DNA of 64,000 nucleotides from Escherichia coli (GCF_003334335.1 NZ_QOWQ01000014.1), one strand, 5' to 3'. Shown: positions 13,514 through 47,894, numbered from the stretch's first letter. Translations and numbers: made by a program. Notes: a model not told the origin generated them from the sequence alone.

Positions 13514-15867
<2,354 letters not shown>

Positions 15868-16113
15868 TTAATTTACTAAACATGGTTTGGTCAGCATAGC
15901 ATCATGTTGTGCGGATAAACACCTGCTATTTTAATATTTGTTACAGTTGCTAAACACGCTGACGCAGGGCGGCGAGAAAAAGAGAAGTTACTGGCTGGTG
16001 GAGGATTAGGTGGTGAAATAAAAAGGCCGTTGGGTTACTCTTCAGGCAGTTAAATGGGCATTTCTACACAGATAATGCGATGTTCAGATTCTGTAGACTT
16101 ATAATGATAGATA

Positions 16114-42221: not shown

Positions 42222-43415
42222 TCAAATCTGTCGTAACTGCGCCTCAACATACAAATAGCCAATTCCCAGCACCTGTTGTGCGCGGCTTAATTGCCCAAAG
42301 CCAATTTGCGTCGCTTTCACGCTCGGTCCTTCGTCGCGGTCGAACGGGTTAAATCCTGTCTGGCGAATAATAGTATTAAGCCAGTTCTCACCAAAGGCAC
42401 AACTGCGACCGTACAACCAAATCTGATTAATATTGAGGATGTTGAGGAAGTTATACAGACTCAAACCAATGGCATTGGCAGAGCGATCAACCCAGCTGGT
42501 GATCCACGGTTCTCCACTTTGCCAGGCAGCGATTAACTGCGCTGTAGTCAGTTTTTCAGGATCAAGTTGAGTACTAACCGGTTGTGATTTTAGCCATACC
42601 CGCGCCTGTTTTTTTAATGCGCTTAACGAGGCGACGGTTTCCAGGCAGCCATAACGTCCACAGTCGCAGACGACGCCATCCGGATTAACGATGGTGTGAC
42701 CAATCTGTCCGCTACCATACAAACTGCCGCGATAAATTTGCTCGTTAATCACGAACGACGAGCCAATGCCGTAATCAACGTTGATCACGCAGAAATCCCG
42801 TTCCTGCGAATTATTTTGCCATTTCTCCGCCAGCGCCAGCATCACGCAGTCATTATCGACCATCACCCGAATGCCGAGCTTCTCTTCCAGCAGATATTTC
42901 ACCTCCACCGGCGTTGTCCACGGCGCTTGCGGCATGGTTTGCGACACGCCGGTCACAGGATCAACCTGACCGTGGATTGCCAACGCCAGGTTGATGGTAT
43001 GGTCCGGCCACAATTTACGGTGGCGATGCCAGCATTTTTCGATTTCGGACAGCAGCGCCTGCGGCGTCGGTGCATCAATCTGTAAATACTCAAATTCACC
43101 TTTCGGACTTAAACAAGCATTAGCAACCTGACACTCAATACTGGTGGGCGTCACGTTCAGGCACAGCGTCCAGTCACCTTCCGGCGCAATCAGCCATGTA
43201 CCGCTACTATGCCCGCGCGTCTGGCTTTCATCGTCAATATTCACCACCCGTTTTTCGCTTTCCAGTTCCTGCAAAATATTACTGACTGCCGGAATCGAAA
43301 TTTGCGCCAGCCGGGCCAGCGTTGATTTATTGGCGCGCTTTTGCCGGTACAGCAGTTCCAGAATCACGCATTTGTTATGGTGGCGAATCTGTTGATTATT
43401 AATGCAGGCTCTCAT
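42222..43415 (-). CDS. yphH: ROK-family transcriptional regulator / sugar kinase-like protein
   Basis: ORF 42222..43421 minus; ATG at 43415 (MRACINNQQIRHHNKCVILELLYRQKRANKSTLARLAQ...) gives 397 aa; N-terminal HTH plus ROK zinc motif CDCGRYGC. Confidence 0.85.
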   Translation of the reverse strand: MRACINNQQIRHHNKCVILELLYRQKRANKSTLARLAQISIPAVSNILQELESEKRVVNIDDESQTRGHSSGTWLIAPEGDWTLCLNVTPTSIECQVANACLSPKGEFEYLQIDAPTPQALLSEIEKCWHRHRKLWPDHTINLALAIHGQVDPVTGVSQTMPQAPWTTPVEVKYLLEEKLGIRVMVDNDCVMLALAEKWQNNSQERDFCVINVDYGIGSSFVINEQIYRGSLYGSGQIGHTIVNPDGVVCDCGRYGCLETVASLSALKKQARVWLKSQPVSTQLDPEKLTTAQLIAAWQSGEPWITSWVDRSANAIGLSLYNFLNILNINQIWLYGRSCAFGENWLNTIIRQTGFNPFDRDEGPSVKATQIGFGQLSRAQQVLGIGYLYVEAQLRQI

Positions 43416-43532
43416 CTTCACTAAACCTTGTTTAGTTAATTGCGTGATTATTCCGCGAAAACATTGCCAGATTGTTCAATACACTGCCACAAATCTTTTA
43501 ATTCAGTATGTCTTGTTAATATTGAGGGCACC

Positions 43533-46500
43533 ATGACTCCAGTAAAAGTGTGGCAAGAGCGCGTTGAGATCCCGACCTATGAAACCGGGCCGCAGGATAT
43601 ACATCCCATGTTCCTGGAAAATCGCGTTTATCAGGGATCGTCCGGCGCGGTTTATCCCTACGGCGTGACCGATACGCTGAGCGAGCAGAAAACCCTGAAA
43701 TCCTGGCAGGCGGTGTGGCTGGAAAACGACTACATCAAAGTGATGATCCTGCCGGAACTGGGCGGTCGGGTGCATCGCGCGTGGGATAAAGTGAAACAGC
43801 GCGATTTTGTTTATCACAATGAAGTCATTAAACCTGCGCTGGTGGGGCTGCTGGGGCCGTGGATTTCCGGTGGGATTGAGTTTAACTGGCCGCAACATCA
43901 TCGCCCGACCACCTTTATGCCCGTTGATTTCACCCTCGAAGCCCATGAAGACGGTGCACAGACGGTGTGGGTAGGCGAAACGGAGCCGATGCATGGTTTA
44001 CAGGTGATGACAGGTTTCACCCTGCGCCCTGACCGGGCGGCGCTGGAAATCGCCAGCCGCGTCTATAACGGGAACGCCACGCCGCGTCATTTCTTGTGGT
44101 GGGCCAACCCGGCAGTGAAAGGGGGGGAAGGGCATCAGAGCGTCTTCCCGCCGGATGTAACGGCGGTGTTTGATCACGGCAAACGGGCCGTCTCCGCTTT
44201 CCCCATCGCTACCGGCACTTACTACAAAGTGGACTACTCCGCTGGAGTGGACATTTCTCGCTATAAAAATGTGCCTGTTCCAACCTCATATATGGCCGAA
44301 AAATCGCAGTACGATTTTGTCGGCGCGTGGTGTCACGATGAAGATGGCGGTTTGCTGCACGTTGCCAACCACCATATTGCGCCAGGTAAAAAACAGTGGA
44401 GTTGGGGACACAGTGAATTTGGCCAGGCGTGGGATAAGAGTCTGACCGACAATAACGGCCCGTATATCGAACTGATGACCGGTATTTTTGCCGATAACCA
44501 GCCCGATTTTACCTGGCTTGATGCTTACGAAGAGAAGCGTTTTGAGCAGTATTTCCTGCCTTATCATTCTTTGGGCATGGTGCAAAATGCCTCCCGCGAT
44601 GCGGTGATAAAACTCCAGCGTAGTAAGCGGGGGATTGAGTGGGGGCTGTATGCCATCTCTCCGTTGAACGGATACCGCCTGGCGATCCGCGAAATCGGTA
44701 AATGCAACGCGTTACTTGATGATGCCGTGGCACTGATGCCTGCGACCGCCATCCAGGGCGTGTTGCACGGTATCAATCCTGAAAGGCTGACCATTGAGCT
44801 CTCCGATGCCGACGGCAATATTGTACTGAGTTATCAGGAACATCAGCCGCAAGCGTTGCCGTTACCGGACGTCGCCAAAGCGCCACTGGCAGCACAAGAC
44901 ATTACCAGTACAGATGAAGCCTGGTTTATCGGTCAGCATCTGGAGCAATATCATCACGCCAGCCGTTCACCGTTCGATTACTACCTGCGCGGCGTGGCGC
45001 TGGACCCGCTGGATTATCGCTGTAACCTGGCGCTGGCGATGCTGGAATATAACCGCGCAGATTTCCCGCAAGCGGTGGCGTATGCCACTCAGGCTCTGAA
45101 ACGCGCACATTCGCTGAACAAAAATCCGCAGTGCGGACAGGCGAGTTTGATTCGCGCCAGTGCTTACGAACGTCAGGGACAATATCAACAAGCCGAAGAG
45201 GATTTCTGGCGTGCGGTCTGGAGCGGCAACAGCAAAGCCGGTGGCTATTATGGCCTGGCACGACTGGCGGCGCGTAATGGTAACTTCGACGCTGGTCTGG
45301 ATTTTTGCCAACAAAGTCTTCGCGCCTGCCCAACCAATCAGGAAGTGCTTTGCCTGCATAATCTGCTGCTGGTGTTAAGTGGTCGTCAGGACAACGCGCG
45401 TGTGCAGCGCGAGAAACTGCTGCGCGATTATCCGCTGAACGCCACTCTGTGGTGGCTGAACTGGTTCGATGGTCGTAGCGAATCAGCTCTCGCGCAGTGG
45501 CGCGGTCTGTGTCAGGGACGCGACGTTAACGCCCTGATGACCGCCGGGCAACTGATTAACTGGGGAATGCCCACCCTGGCGGCAGAGATGCTGAACGCAC
45601 TGGACTGCCAGCGCACGCTGCCGCTTTACCTGCAAGCCAGCTTGCTGCCGAAAGCCGAACGTGGCGAACTGGTCGCAAAAGCCATTGATGTCTTCCCGCA
45701 GTTTGTCCGTTTCCCGAATACGCTGGAAGAAGTGGCGGCGCTGGAGAGTATTGAAGAGTGCTGGTTTGCTCGCCATTTACTAGCTTGCTTCTACTACAAC
45801 AAACGTAGCTACAACAAAGCCATTGCCTTTTGGCAACGTTGCGTAGAGATGTCGCCGGAGTTTGCCGACGGCTGGCGCGGGTTAGCGATCCATGCGTGGA
45901 ATAAGCAACACGATTATGAGCTGGCCGCGCGTTATCTTGATAATGCTTATCAGCTTGCGCCGCAGGATGCACGTCTGCTTTTCGAACGGGATTTGCTGGA
46001 TAAGTTAAGTGGAGCCACACCGGAGAAACGACTGGCGCGTCTGGAAAATAATCTGGAAATTGCGCTGAAACGCGACGACATGACCGCAGAACTGCTCAAT
46101 TTGTGGCATCTCACGGGTCAGGCAGACAAAGCGGCGGACATTCTCGCCACGCGCAAATTCCACCCGTGGGAAGGCGGGGAAGGGAAGGTCACCAGTCAGT
46201 TTATCCTCAACCAGTTATTACGCGCCTGGCAGCATCTTGATGCCAGACAGCCGCAGCAGGCCTGCGAACTGCTTCATGCCGCGCTGCATTATCCGGAGAA
46301 TTTAAGCGAAGGCCGTTTACCGGGGCAAACTGATAACGACATCTGGTTCTGGCAGGCGATATGCGCCAACGCGCAGGGCGATGAAACTGAAGCGACGCGT
46401 TGTTTACGTCTGGCGGCGACCGGCGATCGCACTATTAACATTCACAGTTATTACAACGATCAGCCGGTTGATTATCTCTTCTGGCAAGGGATGGCGCTGC

Positions 46501-46814
46501 GACTGCTGGGCGAACAACAAACCGCACAGCAACTGTTTAGTGAAATGAAACAGTGGGCGCAAGAGATGGCGAAAACCAGTATCGAAGCGGATTTCTTTGC
46601 CGTCTCGCAACCTGACTTGTTGTCGCTGTATGGCGATTTACAACAGCAGCATAAAGAAAAATGCCTGATGGTGGCGATGCTGGCGTCCGCGGGACTCGGG
46701 GAGGTTGCGCAATATGAGTCTGCTCGCGCTGAATTGACGGCGATTAATCCGGCTTGGCCGAAAGCGGCATTATTCACCACCGTGATGCCTTTTATTTTTA
46801 ACCGCGTTCACTAA
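43533..46814 (+). CDS. yphG: large uncharacterised protein YphG (N-terminal beta-rich domain, C-terminal TPR-like helical repeats)
   Basis: ORF 43440..46814; ATG at 43533 (MTPVKVWQERVEIPTYETGPQD...) gives 1093 aa; no function recognisable from sequence alone. Confidence 0.85.
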   Translation: MTPVKVWQERVEIPTYETGPQDIHPMFLENRVYQGSSGAVYPYGVTDTLSEQKTLKSWQAVWLENDYIKVMILPELGGRVHRAWDKVKQRDFVYHNEVIKPALVGLLGPWISGGIEFNWPQHHRPTTFMPVDFTLEAHEDGAQTVWVGETEPMHGLQVMTGFTLRPDRAALEIASRVYNGNATPRHFLWWANPAVKGGEGHQSVFPPDVTAVFDHGKRAVSAFPIATGTYYKVDYSAGVDISRYKNVPVPTSYMAEKSQYDFVGAWCHDEDGGLLHVANHHIAPGKKQWSWGHSEFGQAWDKSLTDNNGPYIELMTGIFADNQPDFTWLDAYEEKRFEQYFLPYHSLGMVQNASRDAVIKLQRSKRGIEWGLYAISPLNGYRLAIREIGKCNALLDDAVALMPATAIQGVLHGINPERLTIELSDADGNIVLSYQEHQPQALPLPDVAKAPLAAQDITSTDEAWFIGQHLEQYHHASRSPFDYYLRGVALDPLDYRCNLALAMLEYNRADFPQAVAYATQALKRAHSLNKNPQCGQASLIRASAYERQGQYQQAEEDFWRAVWSGNSKAGGYYGLARLAARNGNFDAGLDFCQQSLRACPTNQEVLCLHNLLLVLSGRQDNARVQREKLLRDYPLNATLWWLNWFDGRSESALAQWRGLCQGRDVNALMTAGQLINWGMPTLAAEMLNALDCQRTLPLYLQASLLPKAERGELVAKAIDVFPQFVRFPNTLEEVAALESIEECWFARHLLACFYYNKRSYNKAIAFWQRCVEMSPEFADGWRGLAIHAWNKQHDYELAARYLDNAYQLAPQDARLLFERDLLDKLSGATPEKRLARLENNLEIALKRDDMTAELLNLWHLTGQADKAADILATRKFHPWEGGEGKVTSQFILNQLLRAWQHLDARQPQQACELLHAALHYPENLSEGRLPGQTDNDIWFWQAICANAQGDETEATRCLRLAATGDRTINIHSYYNDQPVDYLFWQGMALRLLGEQQTAQQLFSEMKQWAQEMAKTSIEADFFAVSQPDLLSLYGDLQQQHKEKCLMVAMLASAGLGEVAQYESARAELTAINPAWPKAALFTTVMPFIFNRVH

Positions 46815-46910
46815 ACCCTATTAACTGTAATATTTGAGCGGCACGCGCTGCCGCTCATCACAAAATAATTAGAATAAGCCGTTGTTAATAAAAACCCTAC
46901 AGGAGGCTCT

Positions 46911-47894
46911 ATGCCTACAAAAATGAGAACAACCCGTAATCTATTATTAATGGCTACGCTATTAGGTAGCGCACTATTTGCCAGGGCTGCGGAAAAAGAA
47001 ATGACCATTGGCGCAATATACCTTGATACTCAGGGATACTACGCTGGAGTGCGTCAGGGCGTTCAGGATGCGGCAAAAGATTCCTCAGTACAAGTTCAGT
47101 TAATAGAAACTAACGCCCAGGGTGATATTTCGAAAGAAAGTACCTTTGTTGATACCCTCGTGGCGCGTAATGTCGATGCCATTATTTTATCGGCAGTGTC
47201 TGAAAATGGCAGTAGCCGTACCGTTCGTCGCGCCAGTGAAGCGGGCATTCCGGTGATTTGCTACAACACCTGTATTAATCAAAAGGGGGTCGATAAATAT
47301 GTCTCGGCGTATCTGGTCGGCGATCCGCTGGAATTTGGTAAAAAACTGGGTAACGCTGCCGCTGATTATTTTATTGCCAATAAAATTGACCAGCCGAAAA
47401 TTGCCGTCATCAATTGCGAAGCCTTTGAAGTTTGTGTGCAGCGACGTAAAGGATTTGAAGAAGTTTTAAAATCCCGCGTTCCCGGCGCGCAAATTGTCGC
47501 TAATCAGGAAGGGACTGTTTTAGATAAAGCGATTTCCGTTGGTGAAAAACTAATTATCTCCACGCCGGATCTCAACGCCATTATGGGGGAATCGGGCGGT
47601 GCGACACTCGGCGCGGTAAAAGCGGTACGTAATCAAAATCAGGCCGGAAAAATTGCTGTTTTCGGTTCGGATATGACAACCGAAATTGCTCAGGAGCTGG
47701 AAAACAATCAGGTGCTGAAAGCGGTAGTGGATATTTCCGGTAAGAAAATGGGCAATGCTGTTTTCGCGCAAACATTGAAGGTTATCAATAAACAAGCCGA
47801 CGGTGAAAAAGTGATTCAGGTGCCTATCGATCTCTATACCAAAACGGAAGACGGTAAACAGTGGCTGGCAACGCACGTTGATGGTCTGCCCTAA
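46911..47894 (+). CDS. yphF: periplasmic sugar-binding protein of an ABC transporter
   Basis: 327 aa with signal peptide MPTKMRTTRNLLLMATLLGSALFARA; type I periplasmic binding-protein fold. Confidence 0.88.
   Translation: MPTKMRTTRNLLLMATLLGSALFARAAEKEMTIGAIYLDTQGYYAGVRQGVQDAAKDSSVQVQLIETNAQGDISKESTFVDTLVARNVDAIILSAVSENGSSRTVRRASEAGIPVICYNTCINQKGVDKYVSAYLVGDPLEFGKKLGNAAADYFIANKIDQPKIAVINCEAFEVCVQRRKGFEEVLKSRVPGAQIVANQEGTVLDKAISVGEKLIISTPDLNAIMGESGGATLGAVKAVRNQNQAGKIAVFGSDMTTEIAQELENNQVLKAVVDISGKKMGNAVFAQTLKVINKQADGEKVIQVPIDLYTKTEDGKQWLATHVDGLP

Follow-up and report, generated by a model that had tools for sequence, protein, structure and literature searches.

Mlc, an autoregulated repressor of the ROK family, is controlled by sequestration to dephosphorylated PtsG and not by a sugar. 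ROK regulators recognise 23-bp palindromic sites and are autoregulated (PMC3553997), and the operators of NagC, Mlc and XylR are quasi-palindromes with conserved T/A at positions +-5 and +-6 (PMC4288165). NagC and Mlc have been described as repressors of sugar genes; at nagE-nagB, NagC achieves repression by looping together two operators, one weak and one strong (PMC4288165). E. coli has YphH as a third ROK-family regulator, the only one still uncharacterised, whose linker is without the GR motif of other ROK regulators (PMC4288165). In the literature on YphH, the yph genes and DUF5107 we found no operator, effector, target or expression study; a prediction in a database is conceivable.

The region between yphH and the divergent yphG shares several features with these systems. 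As with NagC at nagE-nagBACD, it combines a ROK regulator with a 23-bp odd-centred quasi-palindrome that has T/A at +-6, and two sites stand in a short divergent region, here 84-85 bp (about eight helical turns) apart. The half-site differs from the AT-rich NagC box, reading T(T/A)CA(C/G)T(A/T)AAC, with position +-5 merely W. Also unlike the NagC system, the second site is very weak in E. coli, the strong sites apparently lie at about -64 upstream rather than over the target promoters, the YphH linker has RG in place of GGRR, and looping is predicted by analogy. The Mlc operators of mlc, ptsG and other genes yield a logo in the same 23-bp frame (PMC4288165), with a different motif. XylR/xylO of Bacillus and seven ROK regulons of Thermotoga, whose 23-bp palindromic sites were recognised by comparative genomics, likewise comprise local regulators of sugar operons, an autoregulated regulator gene and ABC or MFS sugar transporters as targets (PMC3553997), although they belong to other phyla and have other motifs. 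Relative to the family norm, the yph site is set apart by W at +-5, by an invariant flank on one side and by its upstream position.

We analysed a 64-kb stretch of E. coli DNA (64,000 nucleotides; hereafter the window), in which yphH and yphG begin with ATG codons at 43415 (minus strand) and 43533, respectively (RefSeq). This annotation agrees with the divergent region of 117 bp given in the preliminary description. On the plus strand, yphG is followed in order by yphF, yphE, yphD, yphC and yphB (RefSeq). The features discussed below are collected in Table 1.

Table 1. Positions, in window coordinates, of genes and sequence features in the yphH-yphG-yphF region
Feature	Position	Strand	Basis or remark
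yphH, ROK-family regulator, presumed binder	42222..43415	-	RefSeq
Site 1, 23-bp quasi-palindromic putative operator	43417..43439		centre 43428
Inverted repeat CTAAAC-CTT-GTTTAG	43421..43435		sequence read
Shine-Dalgarno-like AAGG of yphH	43426..43429	-	in the site-1 spacer, 10 nt 5' of the ATG
Conserved one-sided flank TTGCGTGA	43440..43447	+	GTGA at +16..+19 from the site-1 centre
Putative yphG -10 hexamer TACACT	43480..43485	+	starts 52 bp from the site-1 centre
Site 2, weak candidate auxiliary operator TTCAGTATGTCTTGTTAATATTG	43502..43524		direct-repeat relation to site 1
yphG, DUF5107/TPR protein, presumed divergent target gene	43533..46814	+	RefSeq annotation
Site 3, strong second putative operator	46807..46829		PWM 28.8 bits, conserved
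Flank ATATTTGA after site 3	46830..46837	+	counterpart of the site-1 flank
Putative yphF -10 hexamer TAGAAT	46870..46875	+	starts 52 bp from the site-3 centre
yphF, first gene of putative sugar ABC transporter yphFED, presumed site-3 target	46911..47894	+	RefSeq; PMC10305011

The repeat itself, CTAAACCTTGTTTAG, has two arms of 6 nt, each the exact reverse complement of the other, on either side of the 3-nt spacer CTT. It had been described as a perfect 15-bp palindrome; the inverted repeat is indeed present, but because the CTT spacer is not self-complementary it is a 6+3+6 inverted repeat and not a literal 15-bp palindrome. The perfect dyad widens to 7+3+7 at 43420..43436 and, with one mismatch among the ten pairs (9/10 matching; TTcACTAAAC CTT GTTTAGTtAA), to 10+3+10 at 43417..43439, and the functional unit exceeds the 15 bp first noted. 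This 23-bp block (site 1) reads TTCACTAAAC CTT GTTTAGTTAA on the plus, or yphG-sense, strand and covers positions -24..-2 counted from the yphH ATG, from which the inner repeat is separated by five bases. Read on the yphH strand, the order is TTAACTAAAC-AAG-GTTTAGTGAAG-ATG, and the AAGG at 43429..43426 is the sole Shine-Dalgarno-like sequence for yphH; orthologues have GGAG, GAGG or AAGG in the equal position. The longest yphH reading frame starts at a GTG (43421, minus strand) which lies within the right arm, two codons 5' of the annotated ATG, and which, as the true start, would explain that arm. Orthologues either lack this GTG or have it out of frame, and so the annotated start at 43415 stands.

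The bare repeat is not significant by itself, as its counts in the window match chance: perfect 6+3+6 inverted repeats occur 16 times, against 15.2 +/- 2.5 in shuffled sequences, and perfect 7+3+7 repeats seven times, against 4.0 +/- 1.9. Repeats of the form 10+3+10 with at most one mismatch number eight (2.0 +/- 1.3 in shuffles), and the exact repeat pattern with up to two mismatches has four occurrences where 1.7 are expected. The significance of the repeat lies solely in its conservation and its recurrence.

Conservation was assessed by aligning YphH homologues and comparing 80 orthologous yphH loci from one-genome-per-species contigs (56-97% protein identity), whose genera include Escherichia, Klebsiella, Buttiauxella, Hafnia, Serratia, Ewingella, Budvicia, Pantoea and Erwinia. 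These loci are mutually related, and the sequence between their conserved blocks is unalignable across the three types of gene context described below. The window is K-12-like, matching strain g62 at 100% identity. Within E. coli the locus is found in all 5,426 complete genomes, and the region is at least 95% identical throughout, which makes variation within the species uninformative. The phylogenetic footprinting that had been suggested as a check supports the element: upstream of yphH it is present in one register in 80 of the 80 loci, each time with no more than two mismatches to the 14 specified positions of AGTWAAS-NNN-GTTWAGT, with the arms kept and the spacer variable. Counting from the centre as zero, T-6, A-4, T+3, T+4, A+6 and T+8 are invariant in the 79 distinct sequences, and there are few exceptions to A-8, A-3, G+2 and G+7. 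Information falls to 0.75-0.87 bits at each of the three spacer positions, and to 0.05-0.6 bits at the positions beyond +12, including the first yphH codons. The consensus over the orthologous sites is TACAGTTAAC-GGA-GTTTAGTGAA, in which dyad partners are complementary at +-11, +-8, +-6, +-4, +-3 and mostly at +-2. Position +-7 is a conserved asymmetry, G/G in most genomes; Escherichia and Phytobacter carry C at -7, and it is for this reason that the E. coli copy looks perfect.

We considered whether the repeat could have arisen by chance, its seeming conservation being that of the ribosome-binding and promoter signals of yphH. The bare repeat is, as noted, no rarer than chance would have it; in Enterobacteriaceae the spacer is the Shine-Dalgarno sequence (9-10 nt 5' of the ATG), and the left arm, as TAnAGT, is the best -10-like position on the yphH strand, with a score of at least 4 in 57 of 72 regions (the TTAACT of E. 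coli is a poor match). However, both arms are conserved while the spacer that bears the Shine-Dalgarno sequence is the least conserved part. The element is also retained at a distance from the start codon: in Pantoea, Erwinia, Izhakiella and Biostraticola its centre lies 39-98 bp upstream of the aligned yphH start (residue 1-5; a few bp less if counted from the true start codon), with ACT, TCT, AGT or AGG as spacer. In the one such locus whose start region we read closely (L072, Pantoea), a separate AAGGAG stands a few bases 5' of the yphH ATG. The displaced sites in Pantoea and Erwinia thus rule out the Shine-Dalgarno sequence or the start codon as the cause of the conservation. Together with near-identical sites before yphF and other operons, these observations make a chance origin very improbable.

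A further proposal, made in the preliminary description, is that the repeat forms a small hairpin in the yphH mRNA which hides the ribosome-binding site. The minimum-energy structure predicted for the E. coli yphH leader is a 7-bp stem closed by a 3-nt loop, but its stability is only -4.8 kcal/mol (z = -1.76; 15 of 200 shuffled sequences fold equally well) and the Shine-Dalgarno bases fall mostly in the loop. Among 51 distinct orthologous sites, non-complementary pairs occur at +-7 in 46, at +-5 in 20 and at +-2 in 15; standard pairs fill 77% of cells, against 75.6% in shuffles. Predicted folds reach -3 kcal/mol at only eight of these sites, and 22 of them are predicted to be unstructured. We thus saw neither conserved pairing with compensatory changes nor above-background stability tied to the ribosome-binding site. 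The element is, moreover, kept far from the start codon and at site 3, which overlaps no ribosome-binding site. A search of 43250..47000 against Rfam 15 gave two matches at chance level (E about 0.5), neither of them at the sites. As the base-pairing is not conserved, the hairpin proposal fails, and we give it hardly any credence.

Mapping the E. coli proteins onto the fetched loci revealed three gene contexts. In type A, yphH is divergent from yphG, which is followed by the ABC transporter genes yphFED, and in type B yphG is followed instead by genes for a XylE-like sugar porter and an epimerase-like protein; in some type B genomes a further site past yphH precedes a transporter gene of the LacY or GPH type together with a large glycosidase-like gene. 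Type C, found in Pantoea and Erwinia, is without yphG: the genes divergent from yphH are here those of an RbtT/DalT-type MFS transporter and of a GMC oxidoreductase, and a sugar porter has a second site in front of it. Because one motif occurs in three arrangements, it tracks the regulator gene and not any single target. In two of the loci (L026, 7344..10888, and L057, 7375..12454; Buttiauxella massiliensis and Citrobacter sp. MGH106), a module consisting of the operator and the -10-like hexamer described below is duplicated downstream of yphH, where it precedes genes for a LacY-type or GPH-type transporter and a glycosidase-like protein of 730-766 aa (plus ChiP in L057). These duplicated modules offer a hint that the YphH regulon may handle a glycoside or oligosaccharide.

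To look for recurrence, we derived a position weight matrix (PWM) from 50 sites outside Escherichia, giving the spacer columns zero weight, and scanned the E. coli window. As the matrix was trained on site 1, independent support comes from the other sites only. The top match in the window (28.8 bits) is centred at 46818 and the second (25.9/25.1 bits) is site 1 itself; the next best match scores 13.4, and shuffled windows give 11.7 +/- 2.6 with a maximum of 18.9. The top match, site 3, reads TTCACTAAAC CCT ATTAACTGTA. The yphG stop codon (TAA, 46812..46814) falls within it, and 93 bp separate its centre from the yphF ATG downstream. It is conserved in position in 15 of the 20 loci with yphF, Ewingella included. 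Two loci, L006 (Lelliottia) and L009 (Citrobacter sp.), have a short yphG-yphF gap without either site 3 or the GC-rich hairpin described below, and L008 and L011 have degenerate versions in this gap; from these sequences the yphF operator appears to be dispensable or lost in some lineages. Across 1.03 Mb of loci there are 30 distinct extra matches that score 14 bits or more, and 29 of them map to four regulatory positions within the cluster.

Site 2 is a weaker element, centred at 43513, 85 bp from site 1, and abutting the yphG Shine-Dalgarno sequence. In 52 of 72 loci the best secondary PWM match is found at a distance of 84-85 bp from site 1, with scores of 10-16 bits in the Klebsiella/Citrobacter/Trabulsiella group and under 6 bits in E. 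coli, for which we propose an auxiliary operator with low confidence. In Trabulsiella guamensis (L038) the two sites are 75 bp and not 85 bp apart, owing to a 10-bp deletion relative to T. odontotermitis; this single case of a deletion of one helical turn is consistent with a phasing constraint.

Further operator-like sequences were seen elsewhere. In Raoultella and Citrobacter loci L014-L017 an extra site of 13-18 bits, for example TACTGTTAAC-GTT-GTTGAGTATT, stands about 186 bp past site 3, in the signal-peptide coding 5' end of yphF; it is absent from E. coli. The fourth-best PWM match in the window (15883, 12.8 bits) is within the shuffle range and was rejected as a YphH site. It arises from a perfect 6+6+6 inverted repeat at 15865..15882, TGTTTA-ATTTAC-TAAACA, 7 bp 5' of a minus-strand reading frame that starts at 15858 and encodes 540 aa, the size of nadB. 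TGTTTA-N6-TAAACA is the form of the NadR 'NAD box'.

We consider it likely, on this comparative evidence, that the repeat lies at the heart of a 23-bp odd-centred ROK-type operator which is bound by YphH, autoregulates yphH and controls yphG. The block 43417..43439 has the character of a protein-type dyad site that travels with yphH and recurs before yphF and other sugar-transporter operons. Its -11..+11 extent around 43428 is a quasi-palindrome on a single central base, as in ROK operators, and it is located beside the gene of its own presumed regulator and beside sugar uptake or catabolic genes, the extra sites preceding yphF (ABC transporter) and genes for sugar-porter, LacY-type and GPH-type transporters. 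Of the TT(-6,-5)/AA(+5,+6) pattern of ROK operators, T-6 and A+6 are found in 79 of the 79 distinct sequences, while -5 is T in 56 and A in 22 and +5 is T in 45 and A in 33; Klebsiella-type sites have TT...AA and the E. coli site TA...TA (A-5/T+5). As judged by -10 likeness, the site overlaps the possible yphH -10 and is near -64 of yphG and yphF. Of the uses suggested for the repeat beforehand, autoregulation by the ROK regulator gains support from the register kept in all 80 loci, the ROK-type 23-bp geometry and the recurrence in the cluster. Control of the divergent yphG operon shares this comparative support and is further favoured by the sequences on the yphG side, to which we return below.

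YphH combines a winged helix at its N-terminus with a ROK sugar-binding domain that carries a CxCGxxGC zinc motif (Pfam: ROK at residues 116-337 and a weak MarR/HTH_24 match at 16-54). Residues 9-333 align with the structures of Mlc (1z6r, 3bp8, 9srt; E about 1e-22), the closest solved relative, and the helix-turn-helix and the RG linker residues are conserved in all three context types. The tie between YphH and the site is nonetheless drawn from sequence, which leaves room for a different regulator, for example a global or neighbouring factor, and the flanking TCAC and CGCAAT direct repeats hint at a second protein or a longer complex. Set against this are the tracking of yphH by the motif through three unrelated gene neighbourhoods, the ROK-type 23-bp geometry and the restriction of the motif to the yph cluster in the window-wide scan; we regard another regulator as improbable.

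The dyad is accompanied by conserved sequence on one side. When the sites are oriented with TTCACTAAAC first and the target downstream, all strong sites continue with W-T-n-n-(G/T)(T/C)GA at +12..+19; the flank is ttgcGTGA at site 1, atatTTGA or atccGTGA at site 3 and atctGTGA at the Pantoea porter site. At site 1 the GTGA (TCAC on the yphH strand) is invariant in 79 of 79 distinct sequences. The orientation of the site and its GTGA flank face the target gene in every case. Three other candidate elements were rejected. A CRP site on the conserved (C/T)GTGA fails as its second half-site never exceeds 2-3 of 5 in any group (by eye), and a further complete operator, shifted by 9 bp and overlapping site 1, which would account for the TCAC, scores below 10 bits in all but one locus. 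The sequence TGGCAG-N5-TGAAC on the yphH strand, taken as a sigma-54 promoter, has the wrong spacing and -12 element and is absent from Klebsiella-type loci. The title of a study cited in PMC4288165 refers to overlapping tandem operators at xylO, to which, by analogy, the extra TCAC flank at yph may be a parallel.

Two other repeats adjoin the sites. At 43439..43455 (plus strand) lies a direct repeat whose period is 11 bp; it reads CGCAAT-N5-CGCAAT on the yphH strand (ATTGCG...ATTCCG on the E. coli plus strand), occupies -27..-11 on the yphH strand in all loci, includes the invariant TCAC and is conserved in types A and B. At 46835..46857, TGAGCGGCA-CGCGC-TGCCGCTCA is a perfect GC-rich inverted repeat of 9 bp, 21 nt 3' of the yphG stop and between site 3 and the TAGAAT hexamer; its GAGCGGC...GCCGCTC arms are kept in most type-A genomes. 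When 46800..46880 is folded, this repeat gives the sole stable hairpin, which is not followed by a U tract. The hairpin may act like a terminator for yphG or have a stabilising role there; alternatively, the repeat may be a second protein site, located at the yphF -35 position.

Downstream of the flanks we found -10-like hexamers at a fixed distance. Over 71 distinct yphG regions the best -10-like position reads TACACT, TAAACT or TAGACT (mean 5.14) and is a conserved alignment block; over 14 yphF regions it reads TAGAAT or TAAAAT (mean 4.28). The 52 bp between operator centre and hexamer recur in three transporter-operon regions past yphH and, by eye, at the Pantoea divergent MFS gene (TAGAGT, L072). 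Position-wise scoring over the orthologues found no -35-like hexamer at the expected place, and a simple sigma-70 promoter scan of 43300..43650 found no promoter. The supplements of ROSE, Cappable-seq and Rend-seq studies gave no transcription starts for yphH, yphG or yphF. If the hexamers are real -10s, the operators would be centred near -64 of the target starts and site 2 near +21 of yphG; the yphG and yphF starts are accordingly predicted near 43492 and 46882. With the GTGA flank and the -10-like hexamer both on the yphG side, we consider control of yphG no less likely than autoregulation.

This arrangement affects how YphH would act at its targets. We are least sure of whether yphG and yphF are repressed or activated; by family precedent, we would rate repression about twice as likely as activation. 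If the +52 hexamers are real -10s, the strong sites are near -64, upstream of the core promoters, a position typical of activators and not one at which most sites of repression by NagC, Mlc and XylR are known to lie. Less probably than repression, the same site and the same protein would serve sugar-dependent activation of yphG and yphF from about 64 bp upstream of the start, the flank toward -30 being a weaker second contact as in LysR-type systems, with the divergent yphH still autorepressed. The exact 52-bp spacing in three independent groups (71 yphG, 14 yphF and three transporter-operon regions) and its counterpart in Pantoea speak for such activation, yet the figure of -64 itself derives from the inferred -10 hexamers, and these TAnACT sequences partly resemble the outer half-site TTCACT and might be protein contacts. 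The unrecognisable -35 positions, the empty promoter scan and the constant orientation of site and flank toward the target gene also favour an activator, but the weak downstream site 2 is correctly placed for looping. NagC, a ROK protein, activates glmUS, which we count in favour of activation, while to our knowledge the characterised ROK regulators of local sugar operons are repressors, which we count against it.

In its fullest form, which we regard as rather unlikely, YphH would bind an asymmetric site of about 31 bp (the dyad plus GTGA), about 64 bp upstream of promoters that are without a -35 element, activate yphG, yphF and the transporter operons in the presence of the sugar, and autorepress yphH. 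The parallel with LysR-type sites (T-N11-A near -65) would then comprise a dyad near -64, a weaker conserved sequence toward -35, a divergent autoregulated regulator gene and the invariant T-6/A+6, which is formally T-N11-A. This is a resemblance of architecture and not membership, as YphH is a ROK protein with a winged helix-turn-helix and not a LysR-type protein. If true, composite-site activation would represent a LysR-like architecture carried out by a ROK protein.

Under the repression reading that we prefer, YphH would be the binder of site 1, as a dimer or as half of a tetramer. Sugar-free YphH would occupy site 1, covering the yphH 5' end and ribosome-binding region, and yphH transcription would be turned off (autoregulation). 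Site 1 would be about 64 bp upstream of the inferred yphG start, and YphH on site 1 and the weak site 2 would repress both of the back-to-back promoters, those of yphH and yphG, by looping in the manner of NagC at nagE-nagB; in E. coli, where site 2 scores under 6 bits, this loop is speculative. Site 3 would control yphFEDCB likewise, and a sugar bound to the ROK domain would release the DNA.

A YphH operator would be an ordinary kind of element, of which we found no description for YphH and whose sequence is unlike the NagC and Mlc boxes; a specialist would not be surprised, since 23-bp palindromic autoregulatory operators are expected for ROK regulators. The fixed 52-bp spacing and the one-sided flank pose the question of a ROK protein working from an upstream position. 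The matrix may be used for regulon prediction in other Enterobacterales, including oligosaccharide-type transporters and glycosidase-like genes, and the motif, with two strong sites in E. coli, provides probes for binding work and reporters for inducer screens. The yphGFEDCB genes encode a DUF5107 protein, a sugar ABC transporter, a dehydrogenase and an epimerase, and the motif gives a handle on the regulation of this cluster.
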